Below, piece by piece: positions 9,164 through 17,372 of a stretch of DNA of 41,642 nucleotides (positions within the stretch are counted from its first letter, which is position 1; every line of letters begins with the position of its first letter). A model generated the notes under the pieces. That model saw nothing but the letters and a program-made list of their open reading frames with translations, did not search any database and was not told where the DNA came from. The stretch lies in IMG/VR virus record IMGVR_UViG_2541047897_000010, one strand, 5' to 3'. A program made the position numbers and the translations under genes. This DNA comes from a virus (lineage: Duplodnaviria > Heunggongvirae > Uroviricota > Caudoviricetes).

Positions 9164-9652
9164 ATGAGTCTTTTGAATGAAGTTCAGAAATTCATTGAAG
9201 CCCATCCGGGGTGTACTTCCGGAGACATTGCAGATGCTTTTGCAGGTTACTCACGGCAGCGCGTTCTGCAGTCAGCAAGCAAGTTACGTCAGAGTGGGCG
9301 TGTGGCTCACCGTTGTGAAGGAGATACACGCAGACATTTCCCGCGCCTGACTGAGAGAGCGCAGGAGCCGGAACCACAACCAGTTCGTGAAACCAGACCT
9401 GTGCGCAATTTCTATGTCGGCACTAACGATCCCCGGGTAATTTTGTGCCTGACCCGCCAGGCTGAAGAACTGGAGTCCAGGGGCTTATACCGTCGTGCTG
9501 CAACGGTGTGGATGGCGGCATTCCGTGAAAGCCACTCCCAGCCAGAACGAAACAATTTTCTGGCGCGTCGTGAGCGGTGCTTACGGAAAAGCAGCAAGCG
9601 CGCTGTATCGGGTGAAGAGTGGTATCTGTCAGGGAATTACGTGGGGGCTTAA
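9164..9652 (+). CDS. PerC-like transcriptional regulator
   Basis: Motif AEELESRGLYRRAATVWMAAF matching the recalled PerC family signature. Confidence 0.45.
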   Translation: MSLLNEVQKFIEAHPGCTSGDIADAFAGYSRQRVLQSASKLRQSGRVAHRCEGDTRRHFPRLTERAQEPEPQPVRETRPVRNFYVGTNDPRVILCLTRQAEELESRGLYRRAATVWMAAFRESHSQPERNNFLARRERCLRKSSKRAVSGEEWYLSGNYVGA

Positions 9653-12853: not shown

Positions 12854-13606
12854 ATGAACCTTGAAGCCTTACCAAAATATTACTCCCCAAAATCTCCAAA
12901 ACTGAGCGATGACGCACCGGCGACAGGCTCGGGTGGTTTAACGATTACGGATGTGATGGCTGCGCAGGGGATGGTGCAGTCGAAAGCACCGCTTGGGTTT
13001 GCCTTATTTCTGGCAAAAGTTGGTGTTCAGGATCCTCAGTTTGCGATTGAAGGTCTGCTCAATTACGCGATGGCACTGGATAACCCGACATTGAACAAAT
13101 TGAGTGAAGAAACCCGGTTACAGATCATCCCTTACCTTGTGAATTTTGCCTTTGCTGATTATTCCAGGTCTGCGGCAAGTAAGGCTCGCTGTGGGCATTG
13201 TGCTGGTACTGGATTTCATAATGTATTGCGCGAAGTGGTGAAACACTACAGACGCGGGGAATCTGTTATCAAGGAAGAGTGGGTGAAGGAACTATGTCAG
13301 CATTGCCATGGTAAGGGAGAAGTCAGCACAGCGTGCAGAGGGTGTAAGGGTAAAGGTATTGTCCTGGATGAAAAAAGGACCCGGCTTCATGGCACGCCTG
13401 TTTATAAGATTTGTGGGCGTTGCAATGGAAACCGGTTTAGCCGTTTACCAACCACACTGGCGCGGCATCATGTCCAGAAGCTGGTACCAGACCTGACGGA
13501 TTATCAGTGGTACAAAGGATATGCAGATGTCATTGATAAACTGGTGACAAAGTGCTGGCAGGAAGAAGCATATGCTGAGGCGCAATTAAGAAAAGTGACG
13601 AGATAA
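12854..13606 (+). CDS. Late-gene antiterminator Q-like protein
   Basis: Multiple CxxC/HxxC zinc-binding pairs (CGHCAGTG, CQHCHGKG, CRGCKGKG, CGRCNGN); position before lysis genes and PR'-like promoter/terminator. Confidence 0.6.
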   Translation: MNLEALPKYYSPKSPKLSDDAPATGSGGLTITDVMAAQGMVQSKAPLGFALFLAKVGVQDPQFAIEGLLNYAMALDNPTLNKLSEETRLQIIPYLVNFAFADYSRSAASKARCGHCAGTGFHNVLREVVKHYRRGESVIKEEWVKELCQHCHGKGEVSTACRGCKGKGIVLDEKRTRLHGTPVYKICGRCNGNRFSRLPTTLARHHVQKLVPDLTDYQWYKGYADVIDKLVTKCWQEEAYAEAQLRKVTR

Positions 13607-13673: not shown

Positions 13674-13716
13674 ACGATGGGCTTTGTATGTCTGCCGTTA
13701 ACGAAATCATAACAAA

Positions 13717-13737
13717 CCTCGCTTCGGCGGGGTTTTT
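13717..13737 (+). terminator. tR'-like rho-independent terminator (target for Q antitermination)
   Basis: CCTCGC-TTCG-GCGGGG stem-loop followed by TTTTT. Confidence 0.5.
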
Positions 13738-13756
13738 GCTTTTCTGGAGGTCAATA

Positions 13757-14014
13757 ATGCAGGGCGAAAAGCAGCAGCCATATTTTTTTAATCCTGGTAT
13801 GACTGTTGAACAGCTTGAAGACTGGCTGGAGCAGCAAAAGCTTCATCTAAGCCGCTATAGCCGTCTGGTAAAAGAAAAAGCAGAGCTTGAAGAACGGCTC
13901 AGTGATATTTCTGTGGAAATTGAACGAATGTCTGCTGGTGGTTTTAACGGAAAGTTGAGTTTCCCTTGGGAGTCAAGTTCGCTTCTGAGAAATCATCAAC
14001 AGGGTAGTATTTGA
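13757..14014 (+). CDS. Hypothetical coiled-coil protein at start of late operon
   Basis: ATG 13757 with GGAGG SD (6-nt spacing); ORF track version from 13688 would cross the terminator. Confidence 0.4.
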   Translation: MQGEKQQPYFFNPGMTVEQLEDWLEQQKLHLSRYSRLVKEKAELEERLSDISVEIERMSAGGFNGKLSFPWESSSLLRNHQQGSI

Positions 14015-14480: not shown

Positions 14481-14748
14481 CCCGACAGCAACTATAAATG
14501 CGCTGTTATGTGCTTGTGTTGTTATTACTCTGATGTTTTATCGTCGTGGTGATTCGCGGCATCGTCCTTGGGTTTCACGTTTAGCCTGGCTGATTACTGT
14601 TACATACAGTGCTGTTCCGTTGGCCTATCTCTGTGGGATTTATCCTCATTCCTCATGGCCCATTATCGTGGCGAACACTATTTTTCTTTCCGTGCTGGTG
14701 GCCGTCAGAGGCAACGTTGCACGTCTGGTTGATCATCTGAGGCACTAA
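14467..14748 (+). CDS. Second holin/antiholin-like small membrane protein (3 predicted TM)
   Basis: 93 aa, GTG start with GGGGAGG SD, overlaps previous gene, precedes endolysin. Confidence 0.45.
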   Translation: MELNDPTATINALLCACVVITLMFYRRGDSRHRPWVSRLAWLITVTYSAVPLAYLCGIYPHSSWPIIVANTIFLSVLVAVRGNVARLVDHLRH

Positions 14749-15362
14749 TGAACCAACAATTATTTCAAAAGGCGGCTGGTATTAGCGCCGGGCTGGCTGC
14801 GCGCTGGTTTCCGCACATTGATGCGGCGATGAAGGAATTCGGCATTACAGCACCAGCGGATCAGGCAATGTTTATCGCTCAGGTAGGCCATGAGTCGATG
14901 GGGTTTAGCGCCGTAGTTGAAAATTTTAACTACACACCATCTGCGCTGGTGGCGACGTTCGGAAAGAGGATCACACAGCAGCAGGCTGATGCCCTTGGCA
15001 GAACATCCGGACATGCAGCTCGTCAGGATGCTATTGCCAATCTGGTGTATAGCAACAGACTGGGTAACAAAGCACCAGGTGATGGCTGGAAATATCGTGG
15101 TAGAGGATTAATTCAAATCACTGGCCTCCATAATTATCGCATCTGTGGCGCGGCGCTGAAGTTAGATCTGGTGACTTCACCTGAACAACTGGAACAGGAA
15201 CTACAGGCTGCGCGCTCAGCTGCATGGTTCTACACCTCTAAAGGTTGCATGATCTACGGTGCCGATATTAACCGTGTTACGCGCATCATTAACGGCGGTT
15301 TGAACGGTATTGAGGATCGTAAGGTCCGATACAACAAGGCGCGGGCGGCGCTGCTGGTATGA
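14748..15362 (+). CDS. Endolysin, glycoside hydrolase family 19 (chitinase-like lysozyme)
   Basis: 204 aa with GH19-like motifs (FIAQVGHES, NYRICGAALKLDL, GRGLIQITG). Confidence 0.75.
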   Translation: MNQQLFQKAAGISAGLAARWFPHIDAAMKEFGITAPADQAMFIAQVGHESMGFSAVVENFNYTPSALVATFGKRITQQQADALGRTSGHAARQDAIANLVYSNRLGNKAPGDGWKYRGRGLIQITGLHNYRICGAALKLDLVTSPEQLEQELQAARSAAWFYTSKGCMIYGADINRVTRIINGGLNGIEDRKVRYNKARAALLV

Positions 15363-15751
15363 AGATGAGTTATTGGGCGCTCATTTTAACGTTTATTGCT
15401 TGTGTCGCTGGTGGTCTTGTCTGGTCAGCGAATCACTATCATGGAAAGTTTCTGGAGGAGCAGAAGCGTGCTGATGCTGCGGAACAGCGAGCTGATTCTA
15501 CTGAGGCTATCACCGCGAATGTTCTGCGTACTATGGCAATAACGAACATCATTCAGGAGGCGAATCAACATGCAAAACAGCAGATCGCACTGGAGTCACA
15601 GAGAACCCAGGAAGATATCAAAGTGGCTGTTGCGGATGATGATTGTGCTTCACGTCCTGTGCCTGCTGCCGCTGCTGACCGGTTGCGGAAGTACGCGAAC
15701 AGTTTACGTCCAGGTTCCGGTAGTTCCGTTACCAGCCAGCCTGACGGCTGA
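15359..15751 (+). CDS. i-spanin (Rz-like)
   Basis: N-terminal TM then coiled-coil; ATGA overlap with endolysin stop. Confidence 0.6.
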   Translation: MKMSYWALILTFIACVAGGLVWSANHYHGKFLEEQKRADAAEQRADSTEAITANVLRTMAITNIIQEANQHAKQQIALESQRTQEDIKVAVADDDCASRPVPAAAADRLRKYANSLRPGSGSSVTSQPDG

Positions 15752-15905
15752 AACCCCTCAGCCTGATTTACCTGATCATTTTACGTGGGGCTCGAGCTTA
15801 GATCTGAATGTCGCCTTGTTGTCTGCATTGGCGCAGTGTAATACCGATAAAGCTGACATCAGAAGGATTGAAGTTGAGCGTGGTCACATCATGCAAAAAA
15901 AATGA
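15636..15905 (+). CDS. o-spanin lipoprotein (Rz1-like), overlapping Rz in +1 frame
   Basis: Signal peptide with lipobox LLTGC; Pro-rich; partly embedded in Rz gene. Confidence 0.6.
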   Translation: MMIVLHVLCLLPLLTGCGSTRTVYVQVPVVPLPASLTAETPQPDLPDHFTWGSSLDLNVALLSALAQCNTDKADIRRIEVERGHIMQKK

Positions 15906-15997
15906 TGTTAACTTTGTTTTGTTCCTTGATTTGATATGTGATGGCCCAATAGATACAAAGCACCTGATTTTGGTGACTCTTTTAAAGGGCTTTACAC

Positions 15998-16318
15998 ATG
16001 AAAGATGGTATCTATTTTGTTGTTTTCAGAAGCAATCAACGTGATTTTGGTAATGGTACCGTAGTTGTCAAAAACAATGCAGTAAACGGCGGAGATTTTG
16101 GTTTTACGTATCAGGGAAAAATTGACGGTAGCCAACTTATTCTGCGCGTATCGCAGCATGATTTAAATGTCACCTCGGTTTTCCCTGGGGTAAAGAACTT
16201 TGAATTGAGTCTTTCTTTGCAGGAACGAGGACGTGATTACCTGTTAAATGGATCTGTGGTCGGAATGCCTCAGATGCAGATTTCAATTAGTGCAAAATAC
16301 ATTGGTGATCTGATTTAG
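15998..16318 (+). CDS. Moron-encoded hypothetical protein (predicted beta-rich, no signal peptide)
   Basis: 106-aa ORF in sharply AT-rich insert between lysis cassette and HNH/terminase, followed by its own terminator. Confidence 0.5.
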   Translation: MKDGIYFVVFRSNQRDFGNGTVVVKNNAVNGGDFGFTYQGKIDGSQLILRVSQHDLNVTSVFPGVKNFELSLSLQERGRDYLLNGSVVGMPQMQISISAKYIGDLI

Positions 16319-16338
16319 TTTATCGAGATGATAATTGA

Positions 16339-16359
16339 ACCGCCTCCGGGCGGTTTTTT
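16339..16359 (+). terminator. Rho-independent terminator of moron
   Basis: ACCGCC-TCCG-GGCGGT stem-loop followed by TTTTTT. Confidence 0.55.
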
Positions 16360-16410
16360 ATTGCCATTTCTATGGTCTGTTCCATCGTAATAACTTAAAG
16401 GGAAGCATTA

Positions 16411-16761
16411 ATGCCGCCACGAACCCCGAAAGCCTGCCGTGTTCGCGGCTGCCGCCATACCACTACTGACCCTTCAGGCTACTGCGAAAGCCACAAAAGC
16501 GAAGGCTGGAAGCAATACAAACCTGGACAATCCCGTCATCAGCGCGGCTACGGTTCGAAGTGGGACAGTATCCGCGCGCGTGTTCTGAAGCGTGACAAAG
16601 GTCTGTGTCAGTTATGTCTGCGTGCTGGTGTGGTGCGTGAGGCGAAAACTGTTGACCACATCATCCCTAAAGCGCATGGCGGCACTGATGCTGACAGTAA
16701 TCTGCAGAGTCTGTGCTGGCCGTGTCATAAGGCGAAGACGGCCCGTGAACGGTTAAAGTGA
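16411..16761 (+). CDS. HNH endonuclease (terminase-associated)
   Basis: Cys pairs CRVRGC / CQLC and HNH core (VDHIIPKAHGG...CWPCH). Confidence 0.75.
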   Translation: MPPRTPKACRVRGCRHTTTDPSGYCESHKSEGWKQYKPGQSRHQRGYGSKWDSIRARVLKRDKGLCQLCLRAGVVREAKTVDHIIPKAHGGTDADSNLQSLCWPCHKAKTARERLK

Positions 16762-16787
16762 TAATAATTCTCAACTGTCTGAGGGGA

Positions 16788-16850
16788 GGGGCGGGTCAAA
16801 TCCCTGCAGCCTGACGTCTTCCGGACTGCCCGCCCCATCGTTTTTTTATA
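16788..16850. other. GC-rich inverted repeat with T-run between HNH and terminase small subunit; candidate cos-region element or terminator
   Basis: GGGGCGGG (16788-16795) and CCCGCCCC (16829-16836) followed by T7. Confidence 0.3.
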
Positions 16851-16886
16851 CCCGCGAAAAATGAAATTTAACCAGGAGTGCCGCAT

Positions 16887-17372
16887 ATGGCTGGAACGGC
16901 GGGGCGTTCCGGGCGTCGCCCCAAGCCAACGGCGCGCAAGGCGCTGGCCGGAAACCCCGGCAAGCGAGCCCTGAATAAAGATGAACCTGTTTTTACGCCC
17001 ATCAAAGGTGTTGAGCCACCGGAGTGGTTCGCAGAAGAAAATCTCCCTCTCGCCACGATCATGTGGCAACTGACAACCAAAGAACTCTGCGGTCAGGGCC
17101 TGTTGTGCGTGACTGACCTCGCGGTGCTTGAGCGGTGGTGCGTGGCCTACGAGTTCTGGCGACGTGCCGTGAAAAATATTGCCAGACAGGGCAACACCAT
17201 CACCGGTGCAATGGGCGGCAGGGTCAAAAATCCGGAGCTGACCGCCAAAAAAGAACAGGAGTCCGAGATGAGCAGTACGGGGGCAATGCTCGGACTCGAC
17301 CCCAGCAGCCGCCAGCGTCTGATTGGCCTGGCGGGGAAGAAGAAAGCCACTAACCCGTTTCTGACAATCTGA
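16887..17372 (+). CDS. Terminase small subunit (P27-like)
   Basis: ATG 16887 with AGGAG SD; position before large terminase; basic N-terminus. Confidence 0.65.

Follow-up and report, generated by a model that had tools for sequence, protein, structure and literature searches.

The 41,642-nt virus record IMGVR_UViG_2541047897_000010, the whole of which is referred to here as the window, carries an SfI/SfV-like myovirus prophage of Escherichia coli. At positions 15906-16410, between the Rz1 gene of the lysis cassette and the HNH endonuclease gene, it holds a 505-bp segment with a single open reading frame (ORF) of 106 amino acids (aa), the subject of this analysis. The flanking genes (Table 1) were identified from Pfam and from the Prokaryotic Genome Annotation Pipeline (PGAP) annotation of a 98-99.9% identical prophage of enterotoxigenic E. 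coli (ETEC) H10407, which were in agreement. Measured over 200 bp at a time, GC content dips to 0.35-0.42 across 15800-16400, compared with 0.49-0.60 on either side; the gene itself has a GC content of 0.39 and its flanks 0.52. A reading of the bare sequence (the original prediction) had proposed an AT-rich moron between the lysis cassette and the HNH/terminase genes, comprising a 106-aa ORF in a low-GC insert, an AT-rich upstream region and a clean terminator; the ORF, its composition, its leader and its terminator are all borne out, and empty sites, alternative cargo and the deviant GC content uphold the proposal of a moron as regards its structure.

That the segment is a true insertion is well supported, because related E. 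coli prophages hold either 26 bp or an unrelated gene at the same junction. In two of them (L007 and L008) the Rz1 stop codon and the HNH start codon are separated by those 26 bp, as opposed to 505 bp in the window, which corresponds to a net gain of ~479 bp; a third (L009) has in this place a 54%-identical allele of the ORF (58% identical in coding sequence at the nucleotide level), which follows a 90%-identical leader. Across the 5,426 complete E. coli genomes used for comparison, an 801-bp query (15700-16500, at least 80% covered) was found in 54 at 99% identity or more, and a 1,441-bp query (15360-16800) was present whole in 55, with the flanks alone occurring in many more. Elsewhere the same slot carries other, unrelated single genes, namely SfI_0065 (DUF6979, phrog_5039), phrog_5789, phrog_18591 and phrog_6169, the carriers being SfI, 689R6 and L109-L112; when the slot cargo of other prophages was checked for hints of function, only families of unknown function were found. 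Presence or absence at one junction, deviant composition and a terminator of its own thus mark 15906-16410 as a moron on structural grounds.

The contents of the Rz1-HNH junction across SfI/SfV-like E. coli prophages comprise at least five unrelated families (phrog_2483, which is that of the ORF, 5039/DUF6979, 5789, 18591 and 6169), an unannotated filler of ~420 bp, or nothing at all; the junction is a single-gene cargo hotspot of these prophages. The last ~150-200 nt of Rz1 are themselves mosaic: when 15700-15905 of the window was compared with L007, L008 and L009, the window and L009 had one variant and the empty-site prophages another (~65% identity). This mosaicism suggests that exchange of the cassette takes place by recombination inside the 3' end of the Rz1 gene.

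Leader, ORF and terminator travel as one unit between phage backbones. Carriers in IMG/VR differ in their lysins and terminases; the 80 loci examined there all have the gene in the orientation of the late genes and place it either directly after Rz/Rz1 (before HNH/terminase) or in the interval from the Q side to the holin. In phage Pm34 it is found between Q and the lysis genes, and in Acinetobacter phage qsb1 among tail genes. Gene GC content is below that of the flanks in 38/38 distinct loci. The Q-holin position, taken by a GrlR-like gene in some relatives, holds in the window a 108-aa ORF without a Pfam match (13688-14014, plus strand); this ORF, with the Q antiterminator on one side and the first holin on the other, is in a stx-like slot and may be a second moron.

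Table 1. Positions of the cassette, its elements and the neighbouring genes in the window, and of the corresponding slot in related prophages (positions of the locus named)
Feature	Position	Strand	Basis or remark
Whole cassette, 505 bp	15906-16410	+	Alignment with L007/L008 (empty) and L009 (occupied); low GC
AT-rich leader	15906-15997	+	GC about 0.34; travels with the ORF
Promoter-like element, conserved	15925-15955	+	Two readings, sigma-32-like or poor sigma-70
Small inverted repeat, CACC-N7-GGTG	15961-15975	+	CACC and GTG invariant in alignments A3/A6
Shine-Dalgarno-like AAAGGG	15984-15989	+	8 nt ahead of the ATG
106-aa GrlR-superfamily beta-barrel ORF (phrog_2483), predicted	15998-16318	+	Monocistronic; starts MKDGIYFVVFRSNQ...
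Intrinsic terminator	16337-16362	+	8-bp GC-rich stem, 4-nt loop, T-run; begins 18 nt past the stop codon
Q antiterminator	12854-13606		Pfam and PGAP
Two holins	Between the Q antiterminator and the GH19 endolysin in the neighbour list		Pfam and PGAP
GH19 endolysin	14748-15362		Pfam and PGAP
Rz	15359-15751		Pfam and PGAP
Rz1/LysC o-spanin, left neighbour	15570-15905	+	Pfam LysC, 66.8 bits; PGAP lysC
HNH endonuclease, right neighbour, start of the packaging module	16411-16761	+	Pfam HNH, 60.1 bits; PGAP
P27-type small terminase, followed by the large terminase	16878-17372 (small terminase)		Pfam and PGAP
Rz1-HNH slot in L005	1740-2114		
Rz1-HNH slot in L006	1938-2444		
Rz1-HNH slot in L109	992-1447		
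Rz1-HNH slot in L110	806-1243		
Rz1-HNH slot in L111	498-1007		
Rz1-HNH slot in L112	638-1144		
Rz1-HNH slot in L113	438-855		

The ORF is under purifying selection and is a functional gene; dN/dS measured against close alleles is 0.14-0.28, and this value, together with a near-constant length of 106-107 aa in 91 homologues, establishes it as real. The terminator downstream consists of a stem, GAACCGCC-TCCG-GGCGGTTT (16337-16356), with a T6 run at 16354-16359; the 44-nt stretch that contains it folds with -16.5 kcal/mol (z = -3.96), a stability that 0 of 200 shuffles attained. A loose terminator scan is by itself at chance level, with 2 found where 2.0 were expected. The assignment is convincing because a hairpin and T-run follow the stop codon in 37/38 distinct family loci, usually 15-19 nt downstream, and because the stem sequences differ between these loci while the arrangement is kept.

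This conservation bears on the possibility that the gene is a late-phase accessory, one that would modulate, for instance, lysis timing or the step from lysis to packaging and would be expressed from the Q-antiterminated late transcript. The gene does lie inside the late operon downstream of Q, its co-orientation is without exception among the IMG/VR loci, nearly all copies flank the lysis cassette (after Rz/Rz1 or just before the holin), and a canonical sigma-70 promoter of its own was not found. However, the terminator is retained almost throughout the family, close relatives either manage without the gene (L007, L008) or have unrelated genes in its stead, the qsb1 copy sits among tail genes, plasmid copies have no lysis genes nearby, and the slots flanking the lysis cassette, used by stx and bor, are in any case the classical moron slots of lambdoid phages. 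We regard a late accessory role as unlikely.

The protein is, by sequence comparison and by an AlphaFold2 (AF2) model, an eight-stranded up-and-down beta-barrel and a member of the superfamily of GrlR, the repressor encoded in the LEE (locus of enterocyte effacement). Searched with phmmer against the PDB, it finds GrlR (2OVS, and 4KT5, where GrlR is complexed with GrlA) over residues 1-105 at E 1.6e-10, and the profile of the phage family finds LEE GrlR with 68.4 bits (E 5e-14 at Z = 1.8e9, that is, in 1.8 billion proteins). The AF2 model, built from 86 homologues, has eight strands, no helix and a pLDDT of 93.8; in Foldseek its top match is 4kt5_A (TM 0.87, rmsd 2.1 A, 28% identity), with 4kt5_A/B and 2ovs_A at E 1e-8 to 3e-7 and TM 0.86-0.87, and nothing beyond GrlR falls under E 4e-3. 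A search of viral folds in BFVD returned no significant match. Family-level models place the protein near GrlR and short of its strict definition: Pfam GrlR (PF16518) scores 26.7 bits (E 6.6e-6), just below the gathering cut-off of 26.8, and the NCBIfam GrlR equivalog NF010652 scores 40.5 bits, far below its cut-off of 205. No signal peptide or lipobox is present, and the N-terminus, MKDGIYFVVF, forms strand 1 of the AF2 barrel.

The original prediction had described a beta-rich protein without a signal peptide, as found here; in calling its function unknown, it overlooked the GrlR homology, which was already on record in RefSeq annotation. The near-identical H10407 gene (WP_000651450.1) is named 'GrlR family regulatory protein' there, another database name in the family is 'T3SS negative regulator GrlR' (T3SS, type III secretion system), and the protein is 100% identical to its orthologue in phage SKA5 (tblastn). 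It also matches phrog_2483 over its full length (E 6e-53). PHROG 2483 is a phage family of unknown function to which the protein belongs and whose PHROGs entry records no GrlR link; that link is made here and by the NCBI naming. Homology search and structure prediction, which had been proposed as the check, led to the GrlR superfamily, the sole homology found. In the literature on phage or GrlR-like homologues, and on the accession, PHROG and Pfam identifiers, we found no functional study; one paper states that an assigned function is lacking for such 'orthologs'.

The barrel fold itself raises the possibility of a calycin- or lipocalin-like protein that senses or sequesters a small hydrophobic molecule. 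In the crystal structure of GrlR, Triton X-100 sits in a hydrophobic cavity inside the protein, from which the authors proposed a hydrophobic ligand (PMC1868957), and Foldseek reports a weak likeness of the model to lipocalins, FABPs, avidins and TbpB/HpuA (E 0.004-0.15, TM 0.4-0.59). This similarity is, however, only at the level of a generic eight-stranded barrel, and no member of the family has a known ligand; we consider a ligand-binding role improbable.

The leader that travels with the ORF is under constraint in its own right, because its identity to the leaders of homologues (0.66-0.71) exceeds that of their coding sequences (0.58-0.60 at the nucleotide level), in which synonymous sites are saturated. 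Leaders of the type found in the window and in eight other loci (type A; alignment A3) share, in order, TTGAww, ~14 nt, CCCAAT(A)(A/G)ATA, GCACC-N5-7-GGTGC, a T-rich tract and an AAGGA Shine-Dalgarno sequence, and an AAGGA/GAGG motif occupies the Shine-Dalgarno place in all family leaders. The TTGA and CCCAAT blocks are kept in 7-9 of the nine type-A leaders, and the promoter-like element that they form can be read in two ways: as a sigma-32-like promoter, CTTGAT (15925-15930), N14, CCCAATAG (15945-15952), or as a poor sigma-70 promoter, TTGATT, N18, TAGATA (15950-15955). Set against the E. coli sigma-32 consensus, CTTGAA / CCCCATWT (PMC6687850, PMC12077118), the element resembles sigma-32 promoters more closely than sigma-70 ones. 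The sigma-32-like pattern occurs once in the window, where 0.08 occurrences would be expected, although the pattern was derived post hoc. A promoter scan found no canonical sigma-70 promoter upstream of the ORF, its sole plus-strand hit overlapping the start codon.

Other branches of the family have control regions of a different make. Leaders of the Klebsiella-type subfamily contain a perfect TATAAT at -62 to -57, and those of a low-GC subfamily combine a TTAGATATA element with a terminator upstream and a hairpin of another kind. Autonomous transcription across the family is plausible from these elements. Independent expression in the lysogen, the property that would make the moron a lysogenic-conversion gene, would depend in the window on the conserved non-canonical element. 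By the lambda paradigm, a gene downstream of Q should also be transcribed in lytic growth.

The small inverted repeat at 15961-15975, the window's version of the relatives' GCACC-N5-7-GGTGC with its T-rich tract, could be a stem in the 5' untranslated region or an operator, and it is weak in the window; the predicted fold of the window sequence does not use it (z = -1.0), and the leader hairpin shows no covariation beyond column shuffles. The window contains 12 copies of the motif CACC-N5-9-GGTG where 3.3 would be expected, and we rejected a family of operators built on it; the other sites lie in coding regions and have different spacers. The -10-like element (15948-15956, AATAGATAC) is perfectly complementary over 9 nt to codons 4-6 (16008-16016, GTATCTATT), a complementarity that one homologous locus (L076) retains with A:T replacing G:C. 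The idea of an RNA structure, prompted by this pairing and the leader hairpin, was dropped: 88% of cells pair, but covariation is no better than in column shuffles. An Rfam scan of 15700-16500 gave chance matches below threshold only. Within the AT-rich ORF, a good sigma-70-like site on the minus strand (TTGACA, N16, CAAAAT; 10/12; 16071-16044) may be one of the spurious promoters that often arise inside genes of AT-rich acquired DNA. Three copies of the 9-mer GATTTTGGT are present, at 15966 in the leader hairpin and at 16043 and 16094 in the ORF, where it encodes D-F-G; this triple occurrence is probably due to chance in AT-rich sequence.

The phage-family profile detects at least 505 superfamily clusters at E<=1e-3, and almost all of the 150 clusters listed are single-domain proteins of ~105-125 aa. 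Their hosts comprise Enterobacterales, Acinetobacter, Pseudomonas, Betaproteobacteria, Verrucomicrobiota and Planctomycetes, and members of the family are found on 41 plasmids. Among the latter, two MOBQ Acinetobacter plasmids of 6-8 kb (L114, 4451-5322; L115, 129-1000) each pair a GrlR-family gene with a conserved upstream gene for a 124-aa K/E-rich hypothetical protein, adjoining a RelE/RelB module; the occurrence of the family on two different tiny plasmids means that it is not restricted to phages. Two proteins depart from the single-domain form: in P0201 (211 aa, from a JGI metagenome) a STAS-like DUF4325 domain (residues 17-75) is fused to a GrlR-like barrel (101-207), and P0175 (226 aa) has another, unannotated N-terminal domain.

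On the Salmonella houtenae IncF plasmid p24399, a GrlR-family gene is paired with a CaiF/GrlA-family gene whose product scores 89 bits in Pfam and is 31% identical to GrlA. The two belong to a co-oriented five-gene cluster (L117, 896-4327) that encodes the CaiF/GrlA-family regulator, a hypothetical protein, a PAPS-reductase/DUF3440 (IbrA-like) protein, an IbrB-like protein and the GrlR-family protein; PLSDB labels the IbrB-like protein as ParB N-terminal domain-containing, and a Pfam scan found no domain in it. Judged by sequence, p24399 represents a second, independent GrlR/GrlA-type pairing, outside the LEE, and we found no description of it in the literature searched. In an Opitutus sp. metagenome-assembled genome (L095, 4001-5139), only 6 bp separate a distant GrlR-like gene from the next gene, whose 265-aa product ends in a TIR domain (C-terminal; PADLOC ThsB, E 5.6e-24). 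This single case may represent a defence or toxin-inhibitor pair.

Such contexts bring up superinfection exclusion, anti-phage defence or counter-defence, in which the barrel's binding partner would be a protein either of the host's defence machinery or of an invading phage. The gene's place, a variable hotspot for single cargo genes in a temperate phage, is one where defence morons are typically found, some plasmid copies lie on small mobilisable replicons beside RelE/RelB, and the Opitutus TIR gene and the DUF4325 fusion point the same way anecdotally. Neighbours are not conserved, however, so that the anecdotes may be chance; the protein itself matched 0 families at E<=1 in a PADLOC-DB 2.0 scan, and it has no enzymatic or membrane effector domain. 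A defence role would overlap with the interpretation developed next, having the same mechanism and another target, and we think it rather unlikely as a distinct account.

The interpretation that we favour, tentatively and at somewhat less than an even chance, is that this E. coli prophage, an SfI/SfV-like myovirus, carries in the cassette a monocistronic, self-contained moron whose GrlR-like barrel neutralises a partner protein. Expression from its own promoter, dimerisation, sequestration of a partner and a benefit to the lysogen are the steps that we infer. The promoter-like element of the leader would drive the ORF, possibly in response to stress or sigma-32, and its product would be a small cytoplasmic eight-stranded barrel, probably dimeric. 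By analogy with GrlR, this barrel would bind its partner stoichiometrically and so neutralise it; we favour sequestration because GrlR, the sole characterised member of the superfamily, sequesters a helix-turn-helix activator. The target, a partner other than GrlA, would most plausibly be a DNA-binding regulator belonging either to the host or to a rival mobile element, on which the barrel would act while the prophage is resident, to the benefit of that prophage or its lysogen.

Several observations weigh against partner neutralisation by an independently expressed barrel. No conserved neighbour or partner gene was found in the 80 phage loci or in 18 distant genomic loci, and the PADLOC-DB scan described above was empty. 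The gene lies inside a Q-dependent late operon and no canonical sigma-70 promoter precedes it, while the sigma-32-like reading is both post hoc and off consensus at two positions; expression could instead be confined to lytic growth, with read-through of the terminator. The EDED motif of GrlR aligns to 'D-GSQ' in the phage protein, positions 41-46 are variable both across the 86-sequence family and across the superfamily. The phage protein is basic (pI 8.0), unlike the acidic GrlR (pI about 4.8; 4.7 for residues 3-110), which is complementary to the basic GrlA, so that the electrostatic logic of the GrlR-GrlA complex does not transfer.

So far, GrlR has been familiar only as the partner of GrlA in the switch that controls LEE type III secretion. 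Most of its relatives are instead partner-less genes on mobile cassettes of phages and plasmids, in hosts not known to have a LEE, and they lack the GrlA-binding motif and possess a conserved control region of their own; together, these three properties argue that the fold has a more general target. A broader view, which we hold to be doubtful, is that solo GrlR-like barrels are widespread regulators of mobile elements that neutralise proteins of hosts or rival elements, in this subfamily under a sigma-32-type stress switch, and that LEE GrlR would be a domesticated descendant which acquired GrlA as a partner. Its scope would be the full set of clusters counted above, whether carried by temperate phages, small plasmids or genomic islands, in hosts that range from Enterobacterales to Verrucomicrobiota. 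The target, once found, could explain the GrlA-independent repression by GrlR (PMC9979310), and small regulators or defence factors encoded by prophages would gain a new type. A phage gene labelled 'T3SS negative regulator' should not on that account be credited with a virulence function. As the gene is short and present in the well-studied ETEC H10407 and in phage SKA5, the practical value is modest but real. What was already known is the GrlR naming in public annotation; to this we add that, within a large superfamily, the family is a clade of phages and plasmids without partner gene or EDED, that leader, ORF and terminator travel together, and that the leader contains a conserved, non-canonical sigma-32-like element.

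The phage protein and GrlR have the same barrel in common and align collinearly over their full length with 28-29% identity, sharing the N-terminal MKDGIY, G-x-G, (N/T)GGD and YQG; both are small, cytoplasmic and encoded on horizontally acquired DNA. GrlR, a virulence anti-activator of EPEC, EHEC and C. rodentium, is a dimer, and its surface EDED (residues 46-49) is needed both to bind GrlA and to repress (PMC1868957). By binding the helix-turn-helix of the activator GrlA, GrlR prevents it from reaching DNA; in K-12 delta-hns, LEE promoters are repressed by GrlR even when GrlA is absent (PMC9979310). Its dimer-interface residues I7, I23, I25, V39 and I107 (PMC1868957) correspond to I5, T21, V23, T37 and I102 in the phage protein, of which I5 is invariant in the family and V23 and I102 are nearly invariant or mostly conserved. 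The 13-residue C-terminal tail of GrlR (residues 111-123) is missing from the phage protein, and the family as a whole has a median pI of 5.7 (range 4.6-8.0). The GrlR gene belongs to the grlRA operon of the LEE, in contrast to the phage gene, which is placed outside the LEE between Rz1 and HNH. The nearest relatives of GrlR form a separate clade that comprises the LEE proteins of E. coli and E. albertii, a S. salamae/Citrobacter protein (53% identical to GrlR) and several Salmonella proteins.

A true GrlR-type repressor of the T3SS and LEE, acting on GrlA in a lysogenised attaching-effacing strain, is what the database names and the shared fold would suggest. PerC/Pch proteins are activators of the LEE regulator ler, and the same prophage encodes a PerC-domain protein (9164-9652, plus strand; Pfam PerC, E 3.3e-9), named 'PerC family transcriptional regulator' by PGAP in the H10407 relative; one phage thus has homologues of both a positive (PerC) and a negative (GrlR) LEE regulator. 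Against such a role, tblastn with GrlA, run on the window and on 88 related loci, had no match at E<=10, and a two-sequence GrlA profile run on the six-frame window reached a best E of 0.4. Carriers such as ETEC H10407, and family hosts such as Klebsiella, Serratia, Acinetobacter and Pseudomonas, are not known to have a LEE. We rejected orthology to GrlR, given the missing EDED, the pI of 8.0, the absent tail, the absence of grlA from the window and the 88 loci and a score far below the equivalog cut-off, and we give action on GrlA in a LEE-bearing lysogen scarcely any credence.

Among lambdoid morons, the examples reportedly include lambda bor downstream of Rz, lom, HK97 gp15 and stx between Q and S. 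The original prediction had compared the locus to that of bor; the slot after Rz/Rz1 is indeed the same, and the comparison holds for position only. Both Bor and Lom have signal sequences and belong to the envelope, Bor being a lipoprotein whose gene is antisense to the late operon, whereas the GrlR-like phage protein is predicted to be cytoplasmic and its gene is co-oriented with the late genes; the canonical sigma-70 promoter of the classical moron definition is not evident upstream of the ORF. In its architecture, however, the cassette is like lambdoid morons: each is a single extra gene among late genes, of low GC content, with its own terminator and a patchy occurrence in close relatives, and the same two slots beside the lysis cassette are used.

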